Positions 781 to 57,907 of a DNA stretch of 64,000 nucleotides are shown one piece after another. Made by a program: the position numbers and the translations under genes. Positions within the stretch are counted from its first letter, which is position 1. The number at the start of each line of letters is the position of its first letter. The notes under the pieces were generated by a model, which saw nothing but the letters and a program-made list of their open reading frames with translations, did no database searches and was not told the origin of the DNA. Origin of the DNA: a phage; sequence record OZ335963.1. One strand, written 5' to 3'.

Positions 781-1170
781 TTAACGATTAAAATCGGCAG
801 CAATTGTTTCCGCAACAAGTTGAGCAGCAACAATTAGACGTTCATCTGCATTACCGCAATAATCATCTTCAAGGCGTTCACCACATGAAGTCATAATAAA
901 TTTAGCACCAGCATTTAAAGATTCTGTCGTATGTTTGCGCATTAGTTCAATCCATTTATTGCTTACTTCACGATCGATAGCTTCATAATACGCATGACGA
1001 GCAGGTGCAGATTTAATTTTATTCTGAATAACTTCCATCGCGTTATCAGAAAGAGACAAAACCCATGCTCGACGAATTTTATTTTGATTTTGTGGATTTG
1101 ATTCAGAACGCACGTGTTTTGGCTGAATATCTTTTACATCAACAGTATAATTCACAGTAATTTTAGTCAT
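781..1170 (-). CDS. rpbA: RNA polymerase binding protein RpbA
   Basis: 129 aa, position between 45 and 46 and length match T4 RpbA. Confidence 0.8.
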
Positions 1171-1179
1171 AATACACCT

Positions 1180-1368
1180 TTAGTCATAATAATCAGTAAC
1201 AGTCCAAGCTTCATTTCTGTTGGACATTATTTTCGTATATTCTGCTTTAAATGCATTCTTAAGCATAGATTCAGTAACTATATGCTCTTCATTAGAAAAA
1301 TTATTTCTCAGAATATATCGTTTTATTTCAGGAATAGTTAATAGATGCTGTCCAGTTGAATATTCCAT
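1180..1368 (-). CDS. Hypothetical small protein (T4 45.2 position)
   Basis: 62 aa ORF between rpbA and 46; syntenic with T4 45.2. Confidence 0.6.
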   Translation of the reverse strand: MEYSTGQHLLTIPEIKRYILRNNFSNEEHIVTESMLKNAFKAEYTKIMSNRNEAWTVTDYYD

Positions 1369-1385
1369 GTTTTTCCTCCATAGAG

Positions 1386-1412
1386 ATTATACTCTAATAA
1401 ATTAAAGCATAA
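1386..1412 (-). promoter_or_regulatory. Candidate MotA-dependent middle promoter upstream of 45.2/rpbA/45
   Basis: Minus strand reads TTATGCTTTAAT (MotA-box-like TGCTTtA) then about 11 nt then TATAAT; T4 middle promoter architecture. Confidence 0.4.
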
Positions 1413-1423
1413 TCTCTTATAAA

Positions 1424-3106
1424 TTAAACCATTACAGTAAATCGACCAACTTTCTTCATTTGAAGATGTTGACCGTATGCTTGCGGGTCATGGTCTCTAT
1501 GTGAAATAACAAAAACATTAGTATTTTTTAAACTATCTAAAATAGTTGAAATAGCTTTTACGCCTTCAACATCGGTTGCTGAATCAAAAACTTCATCAAG
1601 AATTAATGTGTTTATTTTAACACCTGAAACTTTTTCGGCAATATCACGCCAAGTAAATAAAAGAGCAATATCAATTCGTGCTTTTTCACCTTGACTGAAT
1701 GAAGCATAACTAAAATCTTCACGACCACGGGATTTAATTGTCTCATTAAATTCTTCATCTAATGTAAACACATAATCCGCTTCCATTATTTTAAGATAAT
1801 GGTTAATCTGCTTATTAAATAATGGAATGTACTTTTTAATAATAGCACCTTTAATACCAGAATCTTTGAGCATATCAGTCAAAATTCCTCTGTGGTATTT
1901 TTCCATTACTAAATTAGTTTTTGTCTTAACAATTTTATCAAGTTCTTCTTGAAGCAGTGCTATTTCATCAGCATGGTCAATAAACTCGGATGATGCTTTT
2001 TCTATAGCTGCTTTAACTTTTTTAGCTTTATCTACCGTCGTGATTAGAGATTGCTTTTTATTGCGAATATCATTCGCCAACGTCTGCTGGGTTTTAATAT
2101 TATCTCGGTATTCATCAACGAGAACTTTTAAATTATCACGATGTGTTGAAAGCTGTTCAAACGAATGCGTGCATTCAGAAACTTTATCTTTAATTTTAGA
2201 AACAACTTTATCACCGGAACTTAATTGTGACAAACAGGTTGGACATAATCCACCTTCGTGATACATATTAATGACTTTATTATACGAGTCAATTTTTGAT
2301 TTAATTAAAAATGCTTCTTGACCGATTTTATTAAATGCATCAGTGGGGTCTTCATCCAAAACAATATTAACTAATCTTTCATTAGCTTCTTCTATTTCCG
2401 ATTTTAGCGTTCTAGCTTCTTTTGCCAAATCATCATACATATTCTGCAGACGAGTAAGGTTATCACCGGTTAATTTTTTCTGACGTTCAACGTTATCATT
2501 ATATATTTTAATTTGTTGGATAATACTATCTTTTTTAACATCAAGCACTTGGTTTTGTGAATTTAATTCACGTATTAGTGCTTTATTAAGCTTATCCATT
2601 TCAGCTAATGTTCCTACCTCGAGTAGGTCTTCGACAAGCTTTCTTCTTGCAGGAGTGGATAGGCCCATAAAAGGGGTATATCCAGCCGTGCCGAGTACGA
2701 CGATCTGTTTGAAACTGGCGTATGACATTCCGATAAGCTGTTCAAATTCTGCTTGGAAATCTTTACTGCTGGCAGATTCATTAAGACGTGTACCGTTAAC
2801 GGTGATTTCGAAAACATTCGGTTTTTGTCCTCTTTTGATATAGTACTTTTTCTCATCATATTCCATCCACAGTTCAACTAAAAGTTCTTTCTTATTTGTG
2901 CTGTTTATTAATTGACCTTTCTTTACATCACGAAATGGCTTGCCAAAAAGCCCAAATGTGATGGCTTCTAACATAGTAGACTTACCACCGCCATTTCGTC
3001 CAGTAATAAGAGTTTTTTGAACCTTATCTAGTTGAATGTCAATAGGATTTCCACCTACTGACATTATATTTTGATACCTAACTCGGTTTAGTTTAAAATT
3101 CTTCAC
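1424..3106 (-). CDS. 46: Recombination endonuclease subunit gp46 (Rad50/SbcC-like ATPase)
   Basis: 560 aa; Walker A GRNGGGKST; CPTC zinc-hook motif; coiled-coil middle; T4 gp46 is 560 aa. Confidence 0.92.
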   Translation of the reverse strand: MKNFKLNRVRYQNIMSVGGNPIDIQLDKVQKTLITGRNGGGKSTMLEAITFGLFGKPFRDVKKGQLINSTNKKELLVELWMEYDEKKYYIKRGQKPNVFEITVNGTRLNESASSKDFQAEFEQLIGMSYASFKQIVVLGTAGYTPFMGLSTPARRKLVEDLLEVGTLAEMDKLNKALIRELNSQNQVLDVKKDSIIQQIKIYNDNVERQKKLTGDNLTRLQNMYDDLAKEARTLKSEIEEANERLVNIVLDEDPTDAFNKIGQEAFLIKSKIDSYNKVINMYHEGGLCPTCLSQLSSGDKVVSKIKDKVSECTHSFEQLSTHRDNLKVLVDEYRDNIKTQQTLANDIRNKKQSLITTVDKAKKVKAAIEKASSEFIDHADEIALLQEELDKIVKTKTNLVMEKYHRGILTDMLKDSGIKGAIIKKYIPLFNKQINHYLKIMEADYVFTLDEEFNETIKSRGREDFSYASFSQGEKARIDIALLFTWRDIAEKVSGVKINTLILDEVFDSATDVEGVKAISTILDSLKNTNVFVISHRDHDPQAYGQHLQMKKVGRFTVMV

Positions 3107-3366
3107 AAAAGATTCCTTTTAATGTATCTTTTAGACCATTCTATCATATCATCATAATCTAAAAAGTATTCATCAAATTCAGCCATGCAAACAACACCTT
3201 GTGCTGCCTTTGATGTGATATAAATTATTCCAACATATCTAGAATCTTCTTCGGTGTAATCAATATTTGCTATGAATTCATCGTTAATGTCAAATGTCGA
3301 AAACTTCACAGTATGCATCCTTAATACAAGATACAGCCATATCTTGTAATGATTTAGGTGTGTCAT
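3103..3366 (-). CDS. Hypothetical protein (T4 46.1 position)
   Basis: 87 aa ORF; start overlaps the 3' end of the upstream ORF so the true start may be internal. Confidence 0.45.
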   Translation of the reverse strand: MTHLNHYKIWLYLVLRMHTVKFSTFDINDEFIANIDYTEEDSRYVGIIYITSKAAQGVVCMAEFDEYFLDYDDMIEWSKRYIKRNLL

Positions 3367-3553
3367 TATCTAAAATGTTGAAATTAAAAGATACAGCCCA
3401 ATCAGTGCAGACCGTAACCTTTTTAATACAATTATCTTCAACCTCTAGCGGTTCAAACCAATATTCAATAATTTCTTTATGCCCAATATCATCTTTTACT
3501 TCGCATTCAAAATGCTGACTCATCATAACATTTTTAAATTCATCAAAAGTCAT
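3290..3553 (-). CDS. Hypothetical protein (T4 46.2 position)
   Basis: 87 aa ORF; its ATG overlaps the gp47 stop (ATGA junction). Confidence 0.5.
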   Translation of the reverse strand: MTFDEFKNVMMSQHFECEVKDDIGHKEIIEYWFEPLEVEDNCIKKVTVCTDWAVSFNFNILDNDTPKSLQDMAVSCIKDAYCEVFDI

Positions 3554-4569
3554 TGTGTTGCCTCTACATATAACTGATTTGCATATTGAATAAGTGCTTC
3601 GCGGTCAGAATCAGTGATGTCTGGAATTGCATTAATGTATTCTTCCATCAACATCTGAAGAGATTGAACTTCAACTTCTTCACTATCATCTGACTCGACA
3701 GAGTTATCAATCTTTGACACAACTCGTAATGAATGCACAACTTTTTCTAGTTCAGATTCGAACTTCGTTAGATTTTTGTCTACTTCAGTTACTATAACAC
3801 GCACTGATAGATTTGTAAAATCTTTATAGTCAATTTTTCCCTTAAATGGATACTGAATTCGACGATGCCAGGTGGTGTTGTTTGGAATAAATTCCATTCG
3901 TTCTGTTTCTGTATCAAACATCCAGAACCCGCGAGGGTCATTCTCGTCACCTGCAGTTAGTGTCCATGGTGTCCCAATATATCTGACGTTAGCAGCCTCA
4001 GAGATAGTATGGAAGTGACCAGACCACACCTCTTTATAAGTCTTAAGGAAATCAGGTTCAAGACCATGAGATTTCATTCCTTTATAAAAATAAAATCCAT
4101 TCAGTTCCCAGTGACCAACACAAAAAGAAGCAGATGAAGTTTTGATGTGTTCAAGAATTTCACCAGTATTTTCTTCGCACATCCAAGGAATTAAATCAAT
4201 CAAACATCCGTCAAAATCTACTGTAGTAGGCTTATCATATACTTTAACATTAGGATATTTAGCCAAAAGCTCAGTAGAAGCATTTGGAGTTAAAGTATTT
4301 TTAAAGTGCATATCATGGTTTCCTACAACAGTATGTAGGGTAATACCAGCATCATCAAGCATTTGAACTATTTCACGGGCGAATTCCATAGTTTTATGCG
4401 TGATTGCTTTTCGCACATCAAAAATATCGCCGTATTGAATCCATGTAGTAATTCCATTTTTCTTAGAATATTCTATTGCTTGTTTAATTCCATCCAACTG
4501 AATGGATTGAACCCACTCATCATCGGCTTTAACACCTAAATGCCAATCACCTAAATTTAAAATTTTCAT
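3550..4569 (-). CDS. 47: Recombination nuclease subunit gp47 (Mre11/SbcD-like)
   Basis: 339 aa; N-terminal LGDWHLG phosphoesterase motif; T4 gp47 is 339 aa. Confidence 0.92.
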   Translation of the reverse strand: MKILNLGDWHLGVKADDEWVQSIQLDGIKQAIEYSKKNGITTWIQYGDIFDVRKAITHKTMEFAREIVQMLDDAGITLHTVVGNHDMHFKNTLTPNASTELLAKYPNVKVYDKPTTVDFDGCLIDLIPWMCEENTGEILEHIKTSSASFCVGHWELNGFYFYKGMKSHGLEPDFLKTYKEVWSGHFHTISEAANVRYIGTPWTLTAGDENDPRGFWMFDTETERMEFIPNNTTWHRRIQYPFKGKIDYKDFTNLSVRVIVTEVDKNLTKFESELEKVVHSLRVVSKIDNSVESDDSEEVEVQSLQMLMEEYINAIPDITDSDREALIQYANQLYVEATQ

Positions 4570-4721
4570 ATATCAAGAACCGTCATTGAAATGCAAAATA
4601 AAATTATTGAAATAAATCCATCTGGAGTGCTAAAGAACCCAATCCAACATGCTCTAGTGAATAGATAAAATGCGAGAAAAAGTATCACATATCCAAGAAA
4701 TATCATTATATCAAACTCCGT

Positions 4722-4744
4722 ATAAAGCTAAAGGGCCGAAGCCC
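4722..4744 (-). terminator. UUCG-tetraloop hairpin terminator downstream of a-gt
   Basis: Plus aaagggccgaagccctttatt, identical to the hairpin at 21-41. Confidence 0.55.
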
Positions 4745-4745
4745 T

Positions 4746-5948
4746 TTATTTTGTAATAATGTCAAACTGTTCTTTAAAGCAGAAGCTTGAATCTTGATGC
4801 TGATACAAAAATTCATAAGCTTTTTCGCGTTCACGGTCATAAAGATTTCGGTCAGATGACAGTTCTTTAATACGCTCAAATGTTGATTCCATGTCATTTT
4901 CATCAAACCAAACGATACCGCTATCATGAGAAATTAACGGAGTATTATCAACACGGAATTTTAAATTTTCGCCAGTAGATTTCCAAAATACCGGAATTGT
5001 TCCACACGCACCAAGCTCGAGATGAGTATATTCTAAAGAACGTTGTAGATATTTTTTGTCCAACTTACTCAACTGATAACCAAATCCGGATTTACTCATG
5101 CGTTCAAGCATCTCGCTATTTACATAACGGTCAAGAATTTGCGTTGGCAAATTAGGAGCAATTTTAATTTGGTCTACTTGATGAAGACGATAATATTCGT
5201 ATGGAATTCCTTTTTCTTTAATAGGAATGAACGCTGGAGAACGTTCCAGACCTTCCATAATAGTACTTAGCCCAGCAGGTTTAAGATGTTTTTCGTGAAA
5301 ATCAAACATCTGATAAAAACCTTTCCATGTAGTCGTACGACCAATCCAACGGTTGACATTCATGTTAATTTCAGAAACATCTTTCCAGTAGGTTGATCGA
5401 ACCTTCGCAATATCCATAGGAGGCTGAAAGTTGTATACAGTCGGTGCTTCTTCAATATCGTCAAACAGTGAAACAGTTTCTGGATACCATTCTTTCATCA
5501 GAACTTTATTAAAATCACCATTATCAGAATGACTAAAAATAACATCAGCTCGGCGAACAGTTTCTTCTAATCCCAAATTTCGGCGCAAAGAAAGAGAAGA
5601 ATGGTCATGTTGATAAACTACAACACGAACCGAAGGTTTAATGTTATCAATAATTTTTTTATAGTTATTAATAGTGTCTTCTTCGACTGAAGTAGCAGGA
5701 ACTGAATTGATAATTAGAATATCACAATCATTTACCAGCTTAAGTGTTTTATCGTATTCTTTTGCCAATAAAACCGGAATTGAAAATGATTTATAATCAT
5801 GCGCGCAATTACGGGTAAATGATTTATCTTTAGCATAAACCAAAGTTACTTCATGACCATTTTTAATAAACCAATCACGTTGCTCAAGAGAAAATTTAGT
5901 TACGCCACAACCTTCAAGACCTCGAGCCATAAAAATGCATACTTTCAT
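4746..5948 (-). CDS. a-gt: DNA alpha-glucosyltransferase
   Basis: 400 aa; near-identical to the T4 AGT sequence as recalled (IFMARGLEGCGVTKFSLEQRDWFIKNGHEVTLVYAKDKSFTR...). Confidence 0.93.
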   Translation of the reverse strand: MKVCIFMARGLEGCGVTKFSLEQRDWFIKNGHEVTLVYAKDKSFTRNCAHDYKSFSIPVLLAKEYDKTLKLVNDCDILIINSVPATSVEEDTINNYKKIIDNIKPSVRVVVYQHDHSSLSLRRNLGLEETVRRADVIFSHSDNGDFNKVLMKEWYPETVSLFDDIEEAPTVYNFQPPMDIAKVRSTYWKDVSEINMNVNRWIGRTTTWKGFYQMFDFHEKHLKPAGLSTIMEGLERSPAFIPIKEKGIPYEYYRLHQVDQIKIAPNLPTQILDRYVNSEMLERMSKSGFGYQLSKLDKKYLQRSLEYTHLELGACGTIPVFWKSTGENLKFRVDNTPLISHDSGIVWFDENDMESTFERIKELSSDRNLYDREREKAYEFLYQHQDSSFCFKEQFDIITK

Positions 5949-6001
5949 TTAATATCCTCATTGTTTTGGTTTATTTTACCAAAAATTTATAAAGCAATAT
6001 A

Positions 6002-6015
6002 GGAGCCGAAGCTCC
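6002..6015 (-). terminator. UUCG-tetraloop hairpin (GGAGC-UUCG-GCUCC)
   Basis: Plus ggagccgaagctcc; overlaps the stop codon of the small ORF 6015-6188. Confidence 0.4.
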
Positions 6016-6188
6016 TATCCGCATAATACACCATACAGAGGCTCATTAGAGCTTCTAAATTTTATGCGTTTATGTGTTATAGTTCCTTCTGCTTTAGCTT
6101 TATCATGAGACTCTTTAAAGCGTCTCATCATTTCTACTTTAGAGGAACGAATTTTATTATAATCTATTTCACAAGTCTGGGCGTTCAT
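6015..6188 (-). CDS. Hypothetical small protein, 57 aa (below the ORF-track size cutoff)
   Basis: Hand-translated: MNAQTCEIDYNKIRSSKVEMMRRFKESHDKAKAEGTITHKRIKFRSSNEPLYGVLCG; start follows the upstream stop (TGAAAGATG). Confidence 0.4.
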   Translation of the reverse strand: MNAQTCEIDYNKIRSSKVEMMRRFKESHDKAKAEGTITHKRIKFRSSNEPLYGVLCG

Positions 6189-6191
6189 CTT

Positions 6192-6398
6192 TCACAGTTG
6201 CCACCATTTTTTGACTTGATAGGAATCAACCCACACTTTCATATTAGGGTCTGCTCTTACAATAGGAGGATTAACTTCTTTAATTGAACTATCGTGGTAT
6301 TCTTTTTCAGAAATTTTCACACAAAGATGACCATTCAAAGATTCAGTAAATCCTGCATTAATTTTAAGACGCTTGAATTTTACGTGTGTAAGCATCAA
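6192..6398 (-). CDS. Hypothetical protein, 68 aa
   Basis: ORF in the a-gt to 55 interval; overlaps the upstream ORF by about 35 nt. Confidence 0.45.
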   Translation of the reverse strand: MMLTHVKFKRLKINAGFTESLNGHLCVKISEKEYHDSSIKEVNPPIVRADPNMKVWVDSYQVKKWWQL

Positions 6399-6681
6399 TC
6401 ATATCCTCAATCTGCGATCTAGTAGTCTTCCAAAGAATACTAATGAGTTCATCGTTATATGGCTGTTTTAGAATATCCCGACTTTTCTTGATAGCATATT
6501 CGTATTGAGCAAAATTATTGTTTTCAGCTGCAATCTGAGCGTGCTTATAAAGACGGTTCAGTTCGCGTTTGTTTTTAGACAATAACTTATTTGCTTTTCT
6601 TTCTGCTTCAAGACGGTTCTTTTCTTCAAGAGAAGAAATAAGCTTTTCCACTTCATCATTAATTTCGGGTTTATCAGTCAT
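6364..6681 (-). CDS. Hypothetical protein, 105 aa, basic and coiled-coil-like
   Basis: ORF in the a-gt to 55 interval; charged/helical composition. Confidence 0.5.
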   Translation of the reverse strand: MTDKPEINDEVEKLISSLEEKNRLEAERKANKLLSKNKRELNRLYKHAQIAAENNNFAQYEYAIKKSRDILKQPYNDELISILWKTTRSQIEDMIDAYTRKIQAS

Positions 6682-6682
6682 A

Positions 6683-6901
6683 TTATTTCTCTAATATAAA
6701 ATAAAAATCATCATCTGTTAAATGATACCGATAGTTTAATTCTACACCATTAGATTTAAAAGCGGTATCATACGGATTTTCTGGATCAATATCAATGTCA
6801 AGAGCTAAAACTTCCCTGAGATACATTTTAAGTAAATAGGGAATAGCTTCAACTTCAGGTATTTCTTCCAAGAATCCGGAGAGGTTAATCGTTAGCCTCA
6901 T
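6683..6901 (-). CDS. Hypothetical protein, 72 aa
   Basis: ORF immediately downstream of gene 55 on the minus strand. Confidence 0.5.
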
Positions 6902-7442
6902 ATAAAAAATCCAAACTAGGAGAATCGTCTACAACACTTTTCTTTTCAGCCCCCGGTGTTCTATAGGTTGATTCTTCGTAATGCGTCATTTTATCGTAGA
7001 TGTCTTGAATAAAAGTTTCATCTACTAACGCAACCATATCGTCGTCACGACTGTCATAGACATTGTGAACGAAGTAACTATATTTCTTTGCAACTTCCTT
7101 ACGTTCTTTTTTAATACGCTGGACGAATGCATTAAAACAAGCTTGAGTTATATATGCATGTGGGTTTTTATATTTCGTTTCATCAAAATTATGAAGCCCC
7201 TTAATAGAAGCTTCTATACCATCTGCAATCATTTCTTGTTTCCAAGATTGGGTGTATCCTGAAAAGTTGAAACGTTTAGATAAGCCTTCTGCGATAAGCA
7301 TAATGGCTAATCCGATAGTATCATTCTGACGAACTACTTTATTTGGGTCTTTATTATTTGCTAATTCTGTTTTCCAATCAATAATAGCTTGTAAAAGCTC
7401 TTTATTGTTTACGTAATTATATTTAGGCTTAGTTTCTGACAT
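6885..7442 (-). CDS. 55: Late-transcription sigma factor gp55
   Basis: Matches T4 gp55 ([24 protein letters not shown]...), 185 aa from the ATG at 7442; the track ORF begins 2 codons upstream at a GTG. Confidence 0.93.
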
Positions 7443-7520
7443 TTTCACCTCTTAGCTCAATTCATAGATCTATTATATCATAATATTTGAAGATCTATCT
7501 TAAAGCATAGAGGATATCAG

Positions 7521-7790
7521 TTATCTAAGTAAGCAGTATGCTTGGAATACTTTCTCCATCATCTTTTTAAATTCATGAATATCTATATAATGACTAGTTA
7601 AATCAGCATGATATAAAAAGTCTAAAAACTTTTCATGTGTGCTAACATATTCACTTTCATTTAATTCAGAAACATGGCTTTCCCAATATCCAACACCAGT
7701 CTTATTTGGGAAAAATGAAATTTTCATATATTGGTCAACATAGAAAATTCCATAATTTTCAATAGTAATAGAAATATTAATAAATTTCAT
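7521..7790 (-). CDS. Hypothetical protein, 89 aa
   Basis: ORF in the 55 to nrdH interval. Confidence 0.5.
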   Translation of the reverse strand: MKFINISITIENYGIFYVDQYMKISFFPNKTGVGYWESHVSELNESEYVSTHEKFLDFLYHADLTSHYIDIHEFKKMMEKVFQAYCLLR

Positions 7791-8008
7791 ACATTCATCA
7801 ACTTAGCCGCTTCAAGAGCTGCATCTAGTGAATCAAATTGGTCAACGTATTCAATCAATTCGCCGTAATTAGCGTATAACCACCATTGGCTAAATTCATA
7901 CTCAAGGATGAATCCATTTCCTTCAATTTGAGTTAAACCAATGCCGTTTGTATTTACTTCATATCCAGCAAGACGCAAATCGTTAATAAGAGCTTCGTTC
8001 ATATTCAT
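7787..8008 (-). CDS. Hypothetical protein, 73 aa
   Basis: ORF with 4-nt stop/start overlaps on both sides. Confidence 0.5.
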   Translation of the reverse strand: MNMNEALINDLRLAGYEVNTNGIGLTQIEGNGFILEYEFSQWWLYANYGELIEYVDQFDSLDAALEAAKLMNV

Positions 8009-20707: not shown

Positions 20708-21676
20708 TTATTTCAGAAGAGTAACCTCAGCGATTTCTTCCCAACCGTTTTTGTCGGTCATAATAAAGTCAGCAAGATAAAGAGCAGTACGCAGTGAAAC
20801 ATTGCGTAAACGATTAACATTAACTTTCATCCATGATAATGCTTTATAAGTTTCTTCATCAGAAAGACCGCGCTTTTGCATCATGTCAGTTGAAAGAATA
20901 ACATCTTCAACCCTGACCATAATTTCTTCATTAGTATGAACACCCAAATCCAAATAAACCGAGCGGGACACTAATGCTTGTAAATGTGGAGCAAGTTTAG
21001 TACCACGGTCTAATTCGCGGTCAATGTCAACGTTTGTGATAAAAACAATCGTTCCTTTAAATTCAAACTCACGCTCAATGCCTTTTTCTTCTAAGTAAGA
21101 AGACGCAGTGCTCCAGCAGACTTTACGGGTCTCTCCAGTGTCCAGAGCAGCTTTTAGAAGATTAAGAATGTCCATATCAGAGAAAACATCCACATCATCA
21201 ATCAAAAGGACAGAATTCTCTTCACGATTATTCCAAAGCTGTTCATAAAGACCAATACCAGAGATTTTACCATTAATGCTTTTATATTCAATGTATCCAA
21301 TATCATTTGCTTTATTCAAAGCTTTATCTAAAGAATACGTTTTACCAATACCTGCTGCGCCAGAGATAATTAATGAACGAATATTTCCATTAATAATACC
21401 ATTCGTCATCATTCCCATAACATTAAATCTTTTATTAATGCGGGTTTTCATATCTTCATACGATTCTTTAACTTCTTCAACTTTTACACCATCATATGAA
21501 ATATCTGATTTGTAAACCCAAACACCGCGACGTTTACCGTCAATTTCAACAAAAACTTTACCATCTCCTTGTGCATCTACCGGAGCATTATCTGGGAACC
21601 ATTCGCCTAAGAGCTCAAAAGTTCCAGAGATTTCTTTACCGAAGTAGATACCCTTATTGATAGTTACAGTTTTCAT
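20708..21676 (-). CDS. P-loop ATPase, AAA+-like (about 322 aa)
   Basis: Walker A SGAAGIGKT, Walker B VLLIDDVD, sensor-like FITN; ATG at 21676 with GGAGAA RBS (track ORF extends to 21694). Confidence 0.6.
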   Translation of the reverse strand: MKTVTINKGIYFGKEISGTFELLGEWFPDNAPVDAQGDGKVFVEIDGKRRGVWVYKSDISYDGVKVEEVKESYEDMKTRINKRFNVMGMMTNGIINGNIRSLIISGAAGIGKTYSLDKALNKANDIGYIEYKSINGKISGIGLYEQLWNNREENSVLLIDDVDVFSDMDILNLLKAALDTGETRKVCWSTASSYLEEKGIEREFEFKGTIVFITNVDIDRELDRGTKLAPHLQALVSRSVYLDLGVHTNEEIMVRVEDVILSTDMMQKRGLSDEETYKALSWMKVNVNRLRNVSLRTALYLADFIMTDKNGWEEIAEVTLLK

Positions 21677-21722
21677 TTTATTCTCCAATTTCACATTTGT
21701 TTTGATAGGGTAATAGTATCAC

Positions 21723-21752
21723 ACTACTACCCTACTGTAAACAATTTATTTT
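21723..21752 (-). promoter_or_regulatory. Early-type promoter upstream of the ATPase gene
   Basis: Minus strand GTTTACA, spacer, TACTAT. Confidence 0.4.
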
Positions 21753-22009
21753 AGTGTTTGCCAAATTTTTACTGCTTCGCGACGAGATACTTCTACAGCT
21801 CCAAGTTCTACGGCTTTTTGACGTCGGCGAGCATGTAAGTCATAATGTTTAATGCGTTTATCTTGAAACCAAGAACGTTTCATTCCTATTGCTTCTGCCA
21901 TTTCATGGAGCTCTTCAATATCTCCATCAGTGAACATATGACAATTTTTAGTTAGATGACCGCGAAGTTTCCATCCATGATTCATTAAAACATCTACGTA
22001 AACTGTCAT
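21746..22009 (-). CDS. Small protein, DUF4031-like (87 aa)
   Basis: MTVYVD...HMFTDGDIEELHEMAEAIG...HYDL...AVELGAVEV pattern resembles DUF4031 as recalled. Confidence 0.4.
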   Translation of the reverse strand: MTVYVDVLMNHGWKLRGHLTKNCHMFTDGDIEELHEMAEAIGMKRSWFQDKRIKHYDLHARRRQKAVELGAVEVSRREAVKIWQTLK

Positions 22010-22155
22010 TGATTCTGCTCCAAATATGTTTCTATAATTTTCTGAGCGAGATAAACTGCGTTATCTTCAGTTGCGTCTTCTAAGAAATTTTCAAAATAAG
22101 CTGAAATTTCTTCTGTGTCAATCAACTTTTTTACTTCAATTAACGTAGTTTTCAT
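22006..22155 (-). CDS. Hypothetical small protein, 49 aa
   Basis: Track ORF 22006-22323 runs through a terminator hairpin and a promoter; the plausible gene starts at ATG 22155 (MKTTLIEVKKLIDTEE...). Confidence 0.35.
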   Translation of the reverse strand: MKTTLIEVKKLIDTEEISAYFENFLEDATEDNAVYLAQKIIETYLEQNQ

Positions 22156-22189
22156 TTTATTCCCCAAATCCGTATCAGTTGATAGTTGT

Positions 22190-22219
22190 ATAGTACCATA
22201 AAGCTTTATGCTTGTAAAC
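22190..22219 (-). promoter_or_regulatory. Early-type promoter
   Basis: Minus strand GTTTACA, spacer, TACTAT. Confidence 0.4.
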
Positions 22220-22241
22220 CGTTTTGTGAAAAAATTTTTGA

Positions 22242-22259
22242 AATAAAAAAGGGAGCCCG
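22242..22259 (-). terminator. UUCG-tetraloop hairpin terminator downstream of the nucleotidyltransferase gene
   Basis: Plus gggagcccgaaggctccc flanked by A/T runs; sits just past the stop at 22271. Confidence 0.55.
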
Positions 22260-22270
22260 AAGGCTCCCTA

Positions 22271-23281
22271 TCATTTATAATAACTTCGGTGGTTTTCAAG
22301 ATAAACCCTCTCAAGGAAGTCATCCCAGAAACCCATGTCTACTTTTTGCTGCATACCGTTCTTAGAAGCTTCAATAGATGCTGCTTCTACTTGATCGACC
22401 ACATCTTCCAAAAACTCTTGAACAGTTTTAAATGGATGTTTACCCAACTTCACGTCGAGAATAAATGGAGCGTCTTGAAGTGGATAGACTAAGTCACCAG
22501 TTTTGTAAATTTCCAATAGTTGGAGTCCGCCACGACAAGCATGACTTAGAGCTTTCCAGTCAATGCCCTCATTCGCTTCAGCCTTACGAGCGCGTTCGCC
22601 GTATTCAGCATCTAATTTGTTCAGTGACTGCTTAAGCTCGATAAGAGAAAGCGTTGTCTGATATTTACGGCCCAACACAGTGTAGAACGTTTGTGGGCCT
22701 GTTTTCTCATGATTATGGAATACCCATTCACAGAATTCGTTCTCTGGAAGACGATGCTTAATATCTTCAACTTTAGTTCGACGCTGCTTAATGGAACCGT
22801 CTTCTTGGTAATCAACCCATTGCTCAGGGATTTGATTAACTACTTTCAATACATCACGCAATGCGGCCAAACGAGAACCCTTGACACCATATTTAGAAGC
22901 TTGCTTGCGGACATATCCTAAATAAGATTTCATGTTAGTTGTATAAAAACGAGAACGATTGTCTTGAATAAATTTCCATACATCAGGCAAATCAGATTTA
23001 ACTACCAGTTCAGGTGGAGTGTGAAGCATATCTAATGCTACGGTTTCACCATCTACTGCTAATTTAAAGAAATATTTAAGACTGTATAGTTCATGGTCAA
23101 TATCATCTTTAGTGTTTTTAGATGATGTGTTGTTGGTATTTTTACTCATATGCTCTTTAACATTTCCGATAAGAATATCACGAGCAGGAGGAACAAAGAT
23201 TTCTTTAAAATCTACATCAGATTCTGGTGTAGAAGTTCCATAAAGATGACTACCGAAATAGCTTTTCATTACTGTTTTCAT
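22271..23281 (-). CDS. Pol-beta-superfamily nucleotidyltransferase (336 aa)
   Basis: N-terminal YFGSHLYGTSTPESDVDF (GS...[DE]h[DE]h) nucleotidyltransferase signature; AAGGA RBS. Confidence 0.5.
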   Translation of the reverse strand: MKTVMKSYFGSHLYGTSTPESDVDFKEIFVPPARDILIGNVKEHMSKNTNNTSSKNTKDDIDHELYSLKYFFKLAVDGETVALDMLHTPPELVVKSDLPDVWKFIQDNRSRFYTTNMKSYLGYVRKQASKYGVKGSRLAALRDVLKVVNQIPEQWVDYQEDGSIKQRRTKVEDIKHRLPENEFCEWVFHNHEKTGPQTFYTVLGRKYQTTLSLIELKQSLNKLDAEYGERARKAEANEGIDWKALSHACRGGLQLLEIYKTGDLVYPLQDAPFILDVKLGKHPFKTVQEFLEDVVDQVEAASIEASKNGMQQKVDMGFWDDFLERVYLENHRSYYK

Positions 23282-23724
23282 TTAACATCCTTAAATTCTA
23301 TCATAGGGCAGATTTTAGATTTACTAGCTTTAAGGTATTCAACGATTACACTATTAGGATGTTCAATACCGTTTTCTTCGTCTTGTTGACGCTTCCACGC
23401 TCTATCATACCTGACTCCTTCCCATAAACCTGAAATCTTAGCTACAATATATGCTATACCTACTGCAATAACGACAATCGTAGCAAATATCAGTACACCA
23501 AATACGGTTCCGCCTGCGTGTAGAAGCCAGAATCCTGTAACACCAAATTGACTTAAAATAGCTTGTCCTACCACCCAACTACCTAATAGCCCCGATGTGC
23601 AAATAACACCGATAACTAAGAACGTCCACGCCATTTTCCAGAAATATTTACACAAAGAATTCGGACGCTGCCAGTAAAAGAAATCATGCATACGAACGTG
23701 CCAAGAGTTTTCATTAATAATCAT
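23278..23724 (-). CDS. Membrane protein, 148 aa (3 predicted TM helices)
   Basis: Hydrophobic segments WTFLVIGVICTSGLLGSWVV, GFWLLHAGGTVFGVLIFATIVVIAVGIAYIVA; stop overlaps the NTase start. Confidence 0.55.
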   Translation of the reverse strand: MIINENSWHVRMHDFFYWQRPNSLCKYFWKMAWTFLVIGVICTSGLLGSWVVGQAILSQFGVTGFWLLHAGGTVFGVLIFATIVVIAVGIAYIVAKISGLWEGVRYDRAWKRQQDEENGIEHPNSVIVEYLKASKSKICPMIEFKDVK

Positions 23725-23726
23725 AA

Positions 23727-24248
23727 TTATCCTTTCATTGAAGGTGTAACAGTTGTTAAATACTTAATCATAGCTTCAGCTTCTGATTTTGATAATGAAA
23801 TTTCTCCATTGTTTTGACGAATAGAAATAAAATCCGGATGATGGTCACCACCAGCTTTTAAAATACACATATAAGTATCAGTTTCATCTTCAATATCTGA
23901 AATGATTGAAGCAGTTCCACATGAATGTGGTTTTTGATAAATCAATACAGCTTTTCTTCCACCGTTTGACTGTTCATAAACTTTTAACACATCAAACAAA
24001 TCACTTCTTTTATCAATAGCTAAGATGTTGTTTTCATCTTCAATGTTAAATCCTTCGGATACTTCATAAAGTGTCACCCATAAATCACCAATATCAATAA
24101 CAGCGTTCACTTTTCCATGACTTTCAAGAGCATTACAAATTTTCTTGATTTCATCATAACTCATTTTAATAATATCATCTCCTTGAATAAAGAAGATGTC
24201 ATTTTTAAATTCAACACGAATTAAACCACTTCCACTTGAAATAAACAT
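23727..24248 (-). CDS. Hypothetical protein, 173 aa (paralog of 24255-24821)
   Basis: C-terminus SKSEAEAMIKYLTTVTPSM resembles TKDEAIALKTYLDSVIPTM of the upstream ORF. Confidence 0.5.
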   Translation of the reverse strand: MFISSGSGLIRVEFKNDIFFIQGDDIIKMSYDEIKKICNALESHGKVNAVIDIGDLWVTLYEVSEGFNIEDENNILAIDKRSDLFDVLKVYEQSNGGRKAVLIYQKPHSCGTASIISDIEDETDTYMCILKAGGDHHPDFISIRQNNGEISLSKSEAEAMIKYLTTVTPSMKG

Positions 24249-24254
24249 ATTTCC

Positions 24255-24821
24255 TCACTTTGAAATCATAGTTGGAATGACAGAATCAAGATAAGTCTTT
24301 AGCGCAATAGCTTCGTCTTTGGTAAATGTGACAATATGCGATCGAAAATCGTCAATTTGACGAATAGTTAAGACATCTCCATCTTCATAGCATTTTGACA
24401 CATTTAAAACAGTTTCATCATTTTGATCGCACTGATCGCAAGCGTTAGTAATAATAGCATTGCAATTTTTGAGCCATTTTAAACTATGTTTTCTTTCATT
24501 AGAATAATAAAAATATTTAATGTAAGTTATAAAATTATCCCAATTATTAATTGATAAGCACATTGACTCACTTTTAATATTAAATCCTGGGCATGAAGAA
24601 TAAAAATGAATTTTGTGCTCATCATTGATGCTTACTATTTTATCAGTATAAGGATATTCAATTTGGGTTAAATGAATGATTTCACTAGGCATAAAATACA
24701 GCATATCGTCTTCTTGTGTCAAACGATACATGTTATTTACTTTTTCTATAGCCAATTCACCAAAAAGCGGACTAACTTCTAATACTAATCGTTTCATATT
24801 GATTCTCTTCGACTCACTCAC
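24255..24821 (-). CDS. Hypothetical Cys-rich protein, 188 aa (paralog of 23727-24248)
   Basis: Starts at GTG in the track, ATG 8 codons in; Cys-rich segment NACDQCDQ. Confidence 0.5.
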   Translation of the reverse strand: MSESKRINMKRLVLEVSPLFGELAIEKVNNMYRLTQEDDMLYFMPSEIIHLTQIEYPYTDKIVSINDEHKIHFYSSCPGFNIKSESMCLSINNWDNFITYIKYFYYSNERKHSLKWLKNCNAIITNACDQCDQNDETVLNVSKCYEDGDVLTIRQIDDFRSHIVTFTKDEAIALKTYLDSVIPTMISK

Positions 24822-24956
24822 AATTACATACTCCTTTGAATAATATCAATAATGTTGTTCACCAGATTATAAGTAAACATTGGATAATTATATTGAATCA
24901 TCACATACACAACAAACAAAACTTTCATTCTCTTCTCCTTGGCAGTTGACAAGATT

Positions 24957-24986
24957 ACTATATCATAACCTTGCCAACTTGTAAAC
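24957..24986 (-). promoter_or_regulatory. Early-type promoter upstream of the 188-aa/173-aa/membrane/NTase gene string
   Basis: Minus strand GTTTACA, spacer, TATAGT. Confidence 0.4.
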
Positions 24987-25151
24987 CATTAAATGACGTT
25001 TTCAATAAAATTCTGAAGCTTTGTGTGAGCATCAACCATGATTTTCATTTCTTCCTTTGCGAAAGCTGTACCTCTTTCTCGAGCAGAATACTCATAGTCA
25101 GAAACTGCATTAGCATATTCTTCAATTAGCTTCATTAAAAACATCTGCTTT

Positions 25152-25346
25152 TCAGTTTTCATTATTCCACCTAATCATTTCAAGATATTGAACTAACTTA
25201 GCTTTGGATTTATCCAAATCTCTTTTAGCTGCTTCTATACCGTCGTATGAATATCCTTCACAATGCTCAACTGCCAATTGGTATGAATCTATTTCAATAT
25301 CACGTGCTAATTTGATGATTTTTTCAAACTGTTCGCGTGTTAGCAT
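25152..25346 (-). CDS. Hypothetical protein, 64 aa
   Basis: Track ORF; my reading of the displayed sequence near 25197-25202 gives an in-frame stop, so there is a 1-nt discrepancy I could not resolve. Confidence 0.35.
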   Translation of the reverse strand: MLTREQFEKIIKLARDIEIDSYQLAVEHCEGYSYDGIEAAKRDLDKSKAKLVQYLEMIRWNNEN

Positions 25347-25348
25347 AC

Positions 25349-25567
25349 TTAAACTCTCGTATTATGATTGATAATTTCATCAAGAAACATGTCTAAAGCT
25401 TCTACAGCATTATCAACTTTAGCTTCAAGTTCTTCAATGCCTGACGAAGCAAAGTTAATGCGTTCCTCATCTGCTTTGCGAATTAAAGCTACCAATTCTT
25501 TAAATTTATCTGCTTGTTCAATGCTAATCATTATTCCACCACGTATGAAAGAGAGAATATTGCACAC
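25349..25567 (-). CDS. Hypothetical protein, 72 aa
   Basis: ORF downstream of rI.1; acidic helical. Confidence 0.45.
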
Positions 25568-25764
25568 GCCATATGAGTTGCAGCTTCATCACACATATCA
25601 TAACGTTTCTTAAGAAGTTCTACAAGTTCTTCACTAGTAACTTCATCCATGTCGACGAAAAAATCACCATTAATGATGACGTAGATATTTCCTTCTTGAT
25701 TGAGTGCTTCAATTTTCATGATGTTCTCCTCTTTATCCGATAGTTGTATAGTATCACAGCTCAA
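25531..25764 (-). CDS. Hypothetical protein, 77 aa
   Basis: ORF; overlaps the next ORF, so start or stop assignment is uncertain. Confidence 0.4.
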
Positions 25765-25777
25765 ATGGAAAGTAAAC
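25748..25777 (-). promoter_or_regulatory. Early-type promoter
   Basis: Minus strand GTTTAC, spacer, TACTAT. Confidence 0.4.
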
Positions 25778-25793
25778 CGGTAAAATGAAAAAA

Positions 25794-25809
25794 GTCTCCC
25801 GAAGGAGAC
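25794..25809 (-). terminator. UUCG-tetraloop hairpin downstream of rI.1
   Basis: Plus gtctcccgaaggagac. Confidence 0.45.
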
Positions 25810-25814
25810 TAATG

Positions 25815-26201
25815 TTATTCGAGGGAAAGAAGATATTTGCTCTGGTAAAACATCCCAGTAATATCATCTATCGTGCTTTGAATGGCTGGAGGCATTTCTT
25901 TATAAATGCTGTTAGATTGGTCTAGTATGTGATCAATCATTTTAATTGTGTCGGTAGGAAGTTTACTAGCATCTGGAATTGAAGGTGTGTATTTTCTACC
26001 AGAATACCCCAAATATTGCTCACCAAATTTATCAATCAAATCTGGCAACTCAGAGAAAATAAAATCGTATGCTTTGTGTCTAGCATAACTTTTAGTTTCA
26101 AAATGCGCAGAATGAAAATAAGCTTGTGCAGCCATTAATAAACCTAAGTATTCATCTGCCTTTGAAGGTTTTCCACTTTGTGAAAAGTCGCTGAATTTCA
26201 T
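25815..26201 (-). CDS. Hypothetical protein at T4 rI.1 position (128 aa)
   Basis: ORF immediately adjacent to rI; named by synteny only. Confidence 0.55.
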
Positions 26202-54576: not shown

Positions 54577-55443
54577 ATGTTCATTCAAGAACCAAAGAAA
54601 TTGATTGATACCGGCGAAATTGGTAACGCTTCTACTGGTGATATCTTATTCGACGGTGGTAATAAAATTAATAGTGATTTTAACGCAATTTATAATGCGT
54701 TTGGCGATCAGCGCAAAATGGCAGTAGCAAATGGCACTGGAGCAAATGGCCAAATTATCCATGCTACTGGATATTATCAAAAGCACTCTATAGCAGAGTA
54801 CGCAACTCCAGTAAAAGTTGGCACTAGACATGATATTGATACCTCTACTGTTGGTGTTAAAGTTATCATTGAAAGAGGAGAACTCGGTGACTGTGTTGAA
54901 TTTATTAACTCAAATGGATCAATATCAGTTACTAATCCTTTAACGATTCAAGCTATTGATTCAATTAAAGGCGTTTCAGGTAATTTGGTAGTAACTAGCC
55001 CATATAGTAAAGTAACTTTGCGCTGTATTTCATCTGATAATTCTACGTCAGTTTGGAATTATTCTATTGAAAGTATGTTTGGCCAAAAGGAATCACCGGC
55101 CGAAGGTACATGGAATATTTCTACGTCTGGATCAGTTGACATTCCGCTATTTCATCGTACTGAATATAACATGGCTAAATTGTTAGTTACATGCCAATCA
55201 GTAGATGGAAGAAAAATTAAAACAGCAGAAATAAATATTCTTGTAGATACTGTTAATTCAGAGGTCATTTCTTCTGAATATGCTGTCATGCGAGTTGGGA
55301 ATGAAACCGAAGAAGACGAAATCGCTAATATTGCATTTAGTATTAAAACAAATTATGTAACAGCGACTATAAGTTCTTCAACTGTCGGTATGAGAGCAGC
55401 AGTTAAAGTTATCGCTACGCAGAAAATCGGGGTGGCTCAATAA
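54577..55443 (+). CDS. 9: Baseplate protein gp9 (long tail fiber socket)
   Basis: 288 aa; position and length match T4 gp9. Confidence 0.92.
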   Translation: MFIQEPKKLIDTGEIGNASTGDILFDGGNKINSDFNAIYNAFGDQRKMAVANGTGANGQIIHATGYYQKHSIAEYATPVKVGTRHDIDTSTVGVKVIIERGELGDCVEFINSNGSISVTNPLTIQAIDSIKGVSGNLVVTSPYSKVTLRCISSDNSTSVWNYSIESMFGQKESPAEGTWNISTSGSVDIPLFHRTEYNMAKLLVTCQSVDGRKIKTAEINILVDTVNSEVISSEYAVMRVGNETEEDEIANIAFSIKTNYVTATISSSTVGMRAAVKVIATQKIGVAQ

Positions 55444-57248
55444 TGAAACAAAATATTAATATCGGTAATGTTGTTGATGATGGTACCGGTGACTACCTGC
55501 GTAAAGGTGGTATAAAAATAAATGAAAACTTTGATGAACTTTATTATGAACTTGGTGATGGAGATGTTCCATATTCAGCCGGTGCCTGGAAAACTTATAA
55601 TGCTTCATCTGGACAAACACTAACGGCAGAATGGGGAAAATCATATGCCATTAATACTTCGTCTGGAAGAGTAACTCTACAACTTCCTAAAGGAACTGTT
55701 AATGATTACAACAAGGTAATTAGAGCTAGAGACGTATTCGCTACATGGAACATCAATCCAGTTACTTTAGTAGCTGCTTCCGGAGATACAATTAAAGGGT
55801 CGTCATCATCGGTTGAAATTAATGTTCAATTTAGTGATTTAGAGTTAGTTTATTGCGCTCCAGGACGTTGGGAATATGTCAAAAACAAACAAATTGACAA
55901 AATTGTTAGTTCAGATATTAGTAATGTAGCTCGCAAAGAATTTTTAGTTGAAGTTCAAGGACAAACTGACTTTTTAGATGTTTTCAATGGAACTAGTTAT
56001 AATGTCAATAACATCAGAGTAAAACATCGTGGTAACGAATTGTATTACGGCGATGTATTTAGCGAAAACAGTGACTTTGGCTCTCCGGGCGAAAATGAAG
56101 GCGAATTAGTTCCTCTTGATGGATTTAATATTAGGCTAAGACAGCCATGTAATATTGGTGACACCGTTCAAATTGAAACATTTATGGATGGTGTATCACA
56201 ATGGAGAAGTTCATATACAAGACGCCAAATAAAAGTACTAGATTCAAAACTAACATCAAAGACTTCTTTAGAAGGAAGCATTTATGTTACTGATTTATCG
56301 ACGATGAAATCAATTCCATTTTCCGCTTTTGGATTAATTCCTGGTGAACCTATTAATCCTAACTCTCTTGAGGTTCGTTTTAATGGAATTTTACAGCAAC
56401 AAGCTGGAACAGCTGGATATCCTCTGTTTTTGTGTGAAGGCGCTAGTTCAGATACACAAGAAGGTTGTATATCTCTTGGTGGTGAATGGAAAGAATCAAA
56501 CACAGATTATTCTATAGAATATGAAGATGGAAAACCTACCAGTCTTTTATTTGATAGAAAATTTGAATCAGGTGATATAATCGTTATAACGTGGTTCAAT
56601 AATGATTTAGGAACTCTTTTAGAAAAAGATGACATCATTGAATTGACTGATGACCGTTATGTTAGTAAAGGATCATCTACTGAAGTTACTGGTGATGTAG
56701 CCTTAACGGATTTTGATAAAATCGGTTGGCCAAATGTTGAAAAAGTTGATTCTTATACTAGAACGTATAATTCAATATCATCTATTTTCGATAGCATTTA
56801 TCCTGTAGGTTCAATTTATGAAAATGCTATAAATCCAAATAATCCGGCGACTTATATGGGGTTTGGTTCATGGAAATTATTTGGTAAAGGACAGGTTTTA
56901 GTAGGATGGAATGATGATGTTACGGATCCAAACTTTGCTTTAAACAATAATGATTTAGATTCTAGCGGAAATCCTTCACATACTGCCGGTGGAACAGTTG
57001 GAACAACAACAGTGACACTTGAGAATGCAAATCTTCCTGCAACTAAAACCGACGAAAGAGTTTTAATTGAAGACGAAAATGGATCAGTTATTATTGGAGG
57101 TTGCCAATATGACCCAGATGAAACTGGTCCTATATATACAAAATATCGTGAAGACTATGCAACAACAAACTCTTCACATACTCCTCCTGCTAATATTAGT
57201 AATATTCAACCGTCTATTACTGTATACCGTTGGATAAGGATTGCATAA
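55443..57248 (+). CDS. 10: Baseplate wedge protein gp10
   Basis: 601 aa (T4 602); stop overlaps the gp11 start. Confidence 0.92.
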
Positions 57249-57907
57249 TGAGTTTACTTAATAATAAAGCGGGAGTTATTTCCCGCTTAGCAGATTTTCT
57301 TGGTTTTAGAACTAAGAAAAATGATATTTCGGTTATGAATAATCAGCCAGTAGGCGCTGTAACAATTTCACAAATAGCAAAAGGTTTTTATGACCCAAAT
57401 GTAGAATCTGCTATCAATGATGTTAGAAATATGGCAGAGCAACAGGTTGGAGCTGTATTAGTTAATATAAGCGGCGTATCTCCTACTGGCGTGCAACAAA
57501 CAGACTATTGGTCATTTGAAGGAACCGTTACTGATACTTCAGCCAAACCAGGTGATCCAGTTATTGTTAACATGTTTGGTATTCCAGTTAAAGCTACTAA
57601 TGGAATGACTTCAATCGAATTCACTAGTGCCGTTAGAATAGCTCTACAGGAAATGGTTGTAAAATTTATTGCAATTGATTCATTTGAAGACCATCCTACC
57701 ATAGGAAATAAAATACAAGTTAAGTATTTAGATAACCAAGAACATATCTTAGAACAATACTCTGATAAAGGAATTACTTTCAAACAGGAAATAATTTCTC
57801 CTTCTAAACCTGGGTACGGAACTTGGCAATTATTAGGTGCGCAAACTGTTACGCTAGATAGTCACACACAACCTACAGTATTTTATTATTTTGAGAGAAT
57901 AGCATGA
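57248..57907 (+). CDS. 11: Baseplate protein gp11 (short tail fiber attachment)
   Basis: 219 aa from [20 protein letters not shown]; the track ORF has a 6-codon upstream extension. Confidence 0.92.

Follow-up and report, generated by a model that had tools for sequence, protein, structure and literature searches.

The mobD.2-nrdC.11 gene unit of a T4-like phage and its predicted RlaP-family nucleotidyltransferase

Introduction

RlaP proteins (PF10127) owe their name to their association with RNA ligases, and were predicted to refill the nucleotides that RloC-type nucleases cut out, before ligation (PMC7824862). Two Pseudomonas members of the family, PfRlaP and PaRlaP, add 1-2 nucleoside monophosphates to the 3'-OH of RNA (Carruthers, Fatma and Huang, bioRxiv, December 2025; PMC12776372). 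Both enzymes are inactive on DNA and protein and work preferentially with Mn2+; of a cleaved-tRNA mimic, they favour the 5' half, and they partly restore the aminoacylation of a tRNA that misses one anticodon-loop nucleotide (PMC12776372). The same study explicitly assigned the NrdC.11 protein of phage T4 to RlaP cluster 5 (PMC12776372), while the bacterial enzymes belong to cluster 1a. Orthologues of nrdC.11 had been matched to a nucleotidyltransferase cluster of orthologous groups in 2006 (PMC1524935). Calling NrdC.11 a nucleotidyltransferase (since 2006) or an RlaP protein (since 2025) is thus not new. Here we analyze the nrdC.11 gene and the genes preceding it (positions 22271-24821) in phage sequence record OZ335963.1, of which 64,000 nucleotides were examined (hereafter, the window).

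The pathway proposed as the partner of NrdC.11 is that of T4 PseT (Pnkp) and RnlA, which heal and seal tRNA cut by anticodon nucleases; RlaP would refill the missing nucleotide before ligation. The T4 pseT and rnlA genes lie approximately 50-80 kb from nrdC.11 and outside the window, and no genetic or biochemical link between them and NrdC.11 has been reported. Genome-reduced T4 mutants that had lost the nrdC.11-mobD.3 fragment were viable, indicating that the fragment is dispensable in the laboratory (PMC9825161). The other described system to which this locus can be compared is the Hailong defence, which pairs a nucleotidyltransferase, HalB (PDB 9dbh, 217 residues), with the channel protein HalA, which binds the oligo-dA made by HalB.

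Results

NrdC.11 carries the catalytic residues of the RlaP family and is modelled with a similar domain layout

The last gene of the locus encodes a protein of 336 amino acids (aa) that is identical to T4 NrdC.11 (NP_049709; T4 positions 55435-56445) in 329 of its 336 residues (98% over the full length), and that is encoded, as in T4, upstream of nrdC.10. An initial annotation of this DNA, made from the letters alone, had recognised a Pol-beta nucleotidyltransferase signature in this protein, and this GS...D.D motif passes a profile search: the Pfam RlaP model (PF10127) matches residues 6-134 with 42.6 bits against a curated cut-off of 23 (E 7.9e-11). Nearly all listed NrdC.11 homologues also carry a precomputed PF10127 match. 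Across 116 homologues (25-99% identity), residues G10, D22, D62, K243, H247, and R250 are invariant, and at least 90% of the sequences share S11 and D24. NrdC.11 thus has the complete Pol-beta catalytic set (hG[GS], [DE]h[DE]h, and a later-strand carboxylate), consisting of G10-S11, D22-x-D24, and D62 as the third carboxylate, and shares the three conserved catalytic aspartates with PfRlaP and PaRlaP.

An AlphaFold2 (AF2) model of NrdC.11 (predicted local distance difference test, pLDDT, 89.3; predicted template modelling score, pTM, 0.72) places D22 and D24 at the start of the strand formed by residues 23-30, and D62 inside the strand formed by residues 61-67. The modelled protein begins with an alpha/beta nucleotidyltransferase domain, continues with a beta-rich insertion of five strands (residues ~150-210) and a helical C-terminal domain, and ends in a long helix. 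Apart from the insertion, which is extra to the phage protein, this predicted layout resembles that described for the PfRlaP crystal structure, in which a nucleotidyltransferase domain at the N terminus is likewise followed by a helical domain and a terminal helix (PMC12776372). NrdC.11 differs from the bacterial enzymes also in that the Pfam model aligns to residues 6-134 only, in that its gene lies outside an rtcB/rtcA operon, and in that its activity is predicted. Sequence searches of the PDB with NrdC.11 alone or with a 7-sequence profile returned nothing detectably related. Foldseek comparison of the model with the PDB gave weak E-values, mostly to the same families, and 33 matches at E <= 0.001 were obtained in a viral structure library, many of them named phage or giant-virus nucleotidyltransferases. 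Altogether, sequence and model identify NrdC.11 as a predicted Pol-beta-fold nucleotidyltransferase of the RlaP family.

Two observations concern the records of NrdC.11 orthologues. Many records give these proteins the mistaken name 'thioredoxin', and one calls the protein a 'putative HNH homing endonuclease'; the value of the present work lies in annotation. In Acinetobacter phage fHyAci03 (locus L005, positions 3492-4523), the NrdC.11 homologue is annotated as two open reading frames (ORFs) of 144 and 191 aa, which may reflect an interrupted gene or a sequencing error.

nrdC.11 is the last gene of a five-ORF unit with early-type transcription signals

At the nucleotide level, the gene stretch shares 97% identity with Tequatrovirus SA20RB, and it has matches in 692 phage records. 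From sequence, the source of the window is a Tequatrovirus (T4-like phage). The stretch belongs to the variable nrdC-tk region of this phage, of which it makes up the mobD.2-mobD.1-(mobD.1 paralog)-(membrane protein)-nrdC.11 segment. The gene order agrees with the T4 annotation, and the cluster consists of named and catalogued T4 genes, so that in this respect the finding is ordinary and already known. The features of the unit, all on the minus strand, are the following.

25748-25778, minus strand: upstream early-type promoter (early-promoter motif; a promoter is annotated at the homologous SA20RB site)
24957-24987, minus strand: T4-early-type sigma-70 promoter, GGTTTAC-N17-TATAGT, with TG-extended -10 (consensus scan 10/12, plus motif)
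24824-24928, minus strand: mobD.2, 34 aa, ATG start, AAGGAG Shine-Dalgarno sequence (phrog_3515, E 6.5e-22)
24255-24821, minus strand: mobD.1 orthologue, 188 aa, GTG start, 88% identity to T4 MobD.1 (phrog_1502)
23727-24248, minus strand: diverged tandem paralog of mobD.1, 173 aa (BLASTP and both y05I Pfam domains), absent from T4
23278-23724, minus strand: small membrane protein, 148 aa (phrog_944, E 3.5e-43), absent from T4
22271-23281, minus strand: nrdC.11, RlaP-family Pol-beta nucleotidyltransferase (predicted), 336 aa
22240-22269, minus strand: intrinsic terminator directly 3' of the nrdC.11 stop codon (G+C-rich 8-bp stem, TTCG loop, T6 tract)

The initial annotation had described four tightly coupled genes behind one promoter. 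Their four ORFs lie exactly where it had placed them on the minus strand and the tight coupling holds, with gaps of 6, 2, and -4 nucleotides (nt), but the number of genes is five because the 34-aa mobD.2 gene had been missed. This gene, which is annotated as MobD.2 in both T4 and phage SA20RB, is separated from mobD.1 by 2 nt, giving successive gaps of 2, 6, 2, and -4 nt from mobD.2 onward, the last being an ATGA overlap. A Shine-Dalgarno-like sequence precedes every ORF of the unit, and the five ORFs from mobD.2 to nrdC.11 would be translationally coupled. Searches of the 188-, 173-, 148-, and 336-aa proteins gave 0 matches in NCBIfam and 0 matches with the PADLOC models, and an Rfam scan of positions 21500-26000 found no RNA family.

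The promoter that had been proposed at about 24957-24986 is present as a T4-early-type site, with its core (TTTACA-17-TATAGT plus TG) at 24985-24957. It is the top minus-strand match of the region and occupies the sole 60-nt intergenic gap of the stretch. A plain consensus scan is not significant (36 sites versus 25.7 +/- 4.9 in shuffled sequences). The motif GGTTTAC-N16-18-TAnnnT, in contrast, occurs 6 times in the window, always on the minus strand, versus 0.61 +/- 0.76 times by chance, and none of 100 shuffles reached this count. The 6 sites include the promoter of the unit (24987-24957), one downstream (22220-22190), and one upstream (25778-25748). The terminator claimed at 22242-22259 is a real hairpin, although its coordinates were approximately 10 nt off: the stem (22269-22250) has 8 pairs, 6 of them G-C, closes on a TTCG loop, and is followed by TTTTTTATTT, with the T-tract at ~22249-22240. 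The RNA of positions 22235-22285 (51 nt, including the hairpin) folds with a free energy (dG) of -17.7 kcal/mol and a z-score of -3.5, and a terminator is annotated at the homologous position of SA20RB.

The unit is hence co-directional and runs from a T4-early-type promoter to a strong intrinsic terminator, as the initial annotation had it, and it combines the features of T4 early units: a GTTTAC-type -35 with an extended -10, co-oriented genes, and an intrinsic terminator downstream. Early transcription by the host RNA polymerase would start at the GGTTTAC-type promoter at 24987-24957 and end at the hairpin at 22269-22240. A second start, with the same end, would probably be provided by the promoter at 25778-25748. 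Another terminator lies at 25810-25793, just before this upstream promoter, and between it and position 22269 the scan found no comparably strong terminator; therefore, transcripts from 25778-25748 through mobD.5-mobD.2a should reach nrdC.11. From its promoters, the unit is predicted to be expressed early.

The genes preceding nrdC.11 encode two MobD.1-type proteins and a hypervariable membrane protein

The 188-aa protein is the orthologue of T4 MobD.1 (88% identity). The paralogy proposed earlier between this protein and the 173-aa product of the next gene is borne out by BLASTP (26% identity, E 8e-9), by the presence in both of the Pfam domains T4_y05I_N and T4_y05I_C (PF24449 and PF24448; E 6e-41 and 5.9e-23 in the 188-aa protein, E 6.3e-34 and 3.1e-23 in the 173-aa protein), and by a common C-terminal motif, KxEAxAxxxYLxxVxPxM. 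The description of the 188-aa protein as Cys-rich holds only weakly, given that it contains 6 cysteines; of these, C120 is invariant and C144 (the cysteine aligned with position 142) nearly invariant in the alignment of the paralogs. T4 has a single mobD.1 copy, whereas the tandem duplicate is limited to a subset of Tequatrovirus-type phages: 479 phage records contain the 173-aa paralog, nearly always with at least 90% identity and nearly always in phages of the Tequatrovirus type, and it is present in only 13 clusters of a set of 5.8 billion proteins. One of these 13 clusters (P0251, 179 aa) is MobD.1-like in its N-terminal two-thirds and paralog-like in its C-terminal third, and is an apparent recombinant fusing both tandem copies. 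An AF2 model of MobD.1 built from an 11-sequence alignment reached a pLDDT of 40; the conserved C-domain of the family appears as beta strands followed by one helix. In addition, T4 MobD.4 and its relatives are mislabelled 'molybdopterin-guanine dinucleotide biosynthesis protein MobD' in database records.

The 148-aa product of the fourth gene had been described as a membrane protein with 3 transmembrane segments whose stop codon overlaps the next start. Both statements agree with our analysis, in which a hydropathy scan gave hydrophobic segments at residues 31-49, 62-80, and 82-100. Approximately 30 N-terminal and 25 C-terminal residues are conserved in the family and contain the cytoplasmic-type motifs M-x-I-x3-S-W-H, L-C-x-Y-F-W, and K-A-x-K-x-K-x-C-P-x-I-x-F, while the divergence sits in the hydrophobic core. 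Of 1073 phage records, only 8 have a membrane gene at least 95% identical to this allele, the others being below 60%, and in the same phages the flanking genes are more than 90% identical despite the hypervariability of the membrane gene. The family comprises 536 representative clusters; the 150 best listed are nearly all stand-alone proteins of ~100-200 aa, and no enzyme fusion was apparent among them.

Genomic contexts of the membrane family were sampled by tblastn and look-ups of representatives. In Pseudomonas phage EPA1 (Pakpunavirus; L088, positions 2729-4764), the phrog_944 gene follows a gene for an HTH_37 protein and precedes genes for an Rnl1-type RNA ligase (PF09511, E 2.9e-9) and an AAA_33 P-loop kinase, which appears from sequence to be an unannotated RNA-repair cassette. 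Genes for ribose-phosphate pyrophosphokinase and nicotinamide phosphoribosyltransferase adjoin it. In Aeromonas phage 44RR2.8t.2 (L090, positions 4001-5945), the membrane homologue is followed by two small genes and then by a gene for a 366-aa 'hypothetical protein' composed of a PHA02142 OB-fold and an RNA_ligase domain (PF09414). No recognisable RNA-repair gene was found near the membrane family in ICP1, Aeromonas phage 65, an Erwinia jumbo phage, and three metagenomic contigs. A general link between the membrane family and RNA repair was rejected, as only 2 lineages showed it among ~9 examined outside the Tevenvirinae, and the proximity to RNA ligases in these two lineages is a weak lead rather than a result.

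Gene order around nrdC.11 is conserved within one subfamily but is not obligatory

We compared 86 loci with NrdC.11 homologues (29-100% identity), the ORFs of which were searched iteratively with each window protein. Upstream of nrdC.11, a phrog_944 gene is present in most loci in which NrdC.11 has at least 63% identity; from 76% identity upward, this membrane gene overlaps the nrdC.11 start in most cases, and it lies 0.4-1.8 kb away in the rest. A gene of the MobD.1 family usually precedes the membrane gene, at full length in the closest phages and as the C-domain only (65-107 aa) in most others. In some Acinetobacter phages (NrdC.11 51-54% identical), nrdC.11 still has both the membrane gene and nrdC.10 in its vicinity. 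Of the remaining loci at or below 53% (from Aeromonas, Vibrio, Sinorhizobium, jumbo-phage, and metagenomic sources), only two have a membrane-family gene within 7 kb, and in phages at this level of identity the upstream genes are mostly all missing.

Comparison with T4 by blastn gave three homologous blocks, and homologous DNA extends from the start of nrdC.11 through the terminator and the next promoter. The region containing the paralog and the membrane gene (window 23283-24229) is replaced in T4 (L002, positions 56447-57257) by the gene of the HNH homing endonuclease MobD, with breakpoints at the nrdC.11 start and ~25 nt past the mobD.1 stop. In a related phage (L014), a mobD homologue is located between the membrane gene and nrdC.11, and in another (L010), a natural deletion fuses mobD.3 directly to nrdC.11. 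Based on the variants in T4, L014, and L010, the 5' flank of nrdC.11 is a rearrangement hot spot, and nrdC.11 is kept in every variant. This indicates that the gene order is conserved within one subfamily and is not obligatory, the enzyme persisting alone in T4 and in the deletion variant. The MobD.1-type proteins and the membrane protein would be co-transcribed accessory genes separable from NrdC.11, the sole gene of the unit with an enzymatic prediction.

On the other side of nrdC.11, this phage differs from T4 by a two-gene insertion before nrdC.10 (window 21689-22146), which consists of an ORF of ~49 aa (phrog_6888) overlapping that of an 87-aa DUF4031 protein. Because eight further loci have the same pair, at distances from nrdC.11 that differ from the one seen here, a mobile cassette is suggested. 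NrdC.10 itself (window 20708-21694) is a 328-aa P-loop/AAA-type ATPase (phrog_1250), named 'helicase loader' in some records. An early-type promoter precedes its gene, either at 22220-22190 or, directly before the gene, at 21741-21713. The nrdC.10 gene lies downstream of nrdC.11 in ~40 of the 86 loci, Acinetobacter phages included. In Aeromonas phage Aes012 (L004, positions 1130-7954), NrdC.11 is encoded between the genes of a nicotinamide mononucleotide adenylyltransferase/NUDIX protein and of a nicotinamide phosphoribosyltransferase, a nicotinamide adenine dinucleotide (NAD)-salvage, counter-defence-type neighbourhood.

Discussion

The explanation that best accounts for the locus as a whole, and which we consider reasonably probable, is that of an early T4-like mobD.2-nrdC.11 unit that provides an RlaP enzyme acting in RNA-end repair together with separable accessory genes. 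For the enzyme, RNA repair or counter-defence is the right reading, as a prediction, because an action on RNA 3' ends in RNA repair is predicted for PF10127 proteins and has been demonstrated in vitro for bacterial members. NrdC.11 would extend the broken end so that anticodon-loop damage of the RloC type, in which a nucleotide is also removed, could be resealed into a usable tRNA, the resealing being left to the kinase-phosphatase and RNA ligases of the phage, whose genes lie in other parts of the genome. In this respect, the module for counter-defence or RNA repair suggested by the initial annotation stands for the enzyme, as a published prediction, and is not supported as a four-gene functional unit, given that synteny breaks in T4, L010, and L014. 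If NrdC.11 does refill tRNA during infection, the T4 PseT/RnlA repair would extend to nucleases such as RloC, whose excision of a nucleotide was believed to put the damage beyond phage repair; this refill idea is testable and has already been published by others.

Several points weigh against an RNA-repair role. RlaP biochemistry is limited to the two Pseudomonas enzymes. The Pfam match covers only residues 6-134, and the phage-clade insertion at ~150-210 could alter the substrate. Searches of the PDB with NrdC.11 by sequence, profile, and Foldseek did not return a PfRlaP structure, and the closest solved structure is that of HalB, a maker of DNA oligomers and not an RNA-repair enzyme. The unit neither contains nor adjoins a gene for an RNA ligase or kinase, and homologues of T4 Rnl1, Rnl2, or Pnk occur within 7 kb in only 4 of the 86 loci, which is no better than chance. 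Lastly, the early timing is predicted from promoter sequence. The association with RNA-repair genes gave the family its name, yet it is not required by the Pfam definition.

Instead of repairing RNA, NrdC.11 might nucleotidylate a protein, a small molecule, or a nucleotide, or make or destroy an oligonucleotide signal, for instance as a decoy against a Hailong-type defence. The beta-rich insertion particular to the phage clade and the location in an accessory region with counter-defence genes, such as the NAD-salvage enzymes of Aes012, are in line with such activities. However, the sequence assigns NrdC.11 to PF10127 and not to those other families, the 16% identity to HalB over 127 residues is ordinary within a shared fold, the PADLOC models gave 0 matches, and the characterised PF10127 members act on RNA only, being inactive on DNA or protein (PMC12776372). 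We therefore regard a non-RNA function as unlikely. A Hailong-like pairing of the membrane and nucleotidyltransferase genes was rejected because both occur apart in many phages: NrdC.11 lacks the membrane gene in T4, in the deletion variant, and in most distant phages, whereas in Hailong the pairing is obligate, and, among the loci examined, those of Pakpunavirus, ICP1, and others have the membrane family but lack NrdC.11. There is also no evidence that the phage membrane protein resembles HalA.

The accessory genes could have a larger part than the one that we assign to them. The y05I_C-domain protein, phrog_944, and RlaP might form a functional module in which the membrane protein recruits or regulates RNA-end repair at the inner membrane, or senses a membrane-linked host toxin. 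This would fit the order y05I_C protein, membrane protein, 0-3 small genes, and NrdC.11, which is kept in most loci at 63% identity or more in a region otherwise plastic, the start/stop overlap found in most loci at 76% or more, and the membrane homologues placed directly before the Rnl1-type ligase and AAA_33 kinase of Pakpunavirus and two small genes 5' of the PF09414 ligase of 44RR2. It is nonetheless quite unlikely, as T4 has NrdC.11 without the membrane gene, the natural deletion variant retains nrdC.11 alone, and most phages with a distant NrdC.11 have no membrane gene nearby; moreover, the membrane family has no recognisable RNA-repair neighbour in ICP1, Aeromonas phage 65, the Erwinia jumbo phage, and the three metagenomic contigs, and none of the 150 best of its 536 representatives looks like an enzyme fusion. 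A related and very doubtful speculation is that phrog_944 and the y05I_C-domain protein upstream of it are a previously unrecognised partner of phage RNA-repair enzymes, with the hypervariable core resulting from an arms race with a membrane-linked host factor. It comes from the position of phrog_944 directly upstream of RlaP in T-even-type phages or of the Rnl1-type ligase and kinase in Pakpunavirus, and two genes from the PF09414 ligase in Aeromonas Biquartaviruses. Most improbable, in our judgement, is a regulatory cassette in which MobD.1 and its paralog are DNA-binding transcription factors for host or phage genes and NrdC.11 is a downstream passenger. The Pfam domains are named 'y05I-like putative transcription factor', the protein encoded before the membrane gene in Klebsiella and Enterobacter-type phages consists of the C-domain alone, and an HTH_37 protein takes that place in Pakpunavirus. 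However, a DNA-binding fold is unverified because the MobD.1 model has a pLDDT of 40, the C-domain appears to consist of beta strands and a single helix and not of a helix-turn-helix, and a literature search on MobD.1 function found nothing. An early unit with a predicted RNA-end-repair enzyme and separable accessory genes thus remains the explanation that we favour.

In favour of RNA repair, some distant NrdC.11 homologues do have RNA ligases as neighbours. In Sinorhizobium phage phiM19, RNA ligases are encoded on both sides of the NrdC.11 homologue, and in marine contigs a PF09414 RNA ligase is encoded ~0.6 kb upstream of a distant homologue. Other repair-type neighbours were observed in metagenomic and bacterial contigs. 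In one of them (L108, positions 4471-5993), the start of a distant NrdC.11-like RlaP gene is overlapped by the upstream gene of an HD-domain phosphohydrolase, and another (L106, positions 5001-6760) has two RlaP paralogs in tandem, with YjbR and zf-CHCC genes before them.

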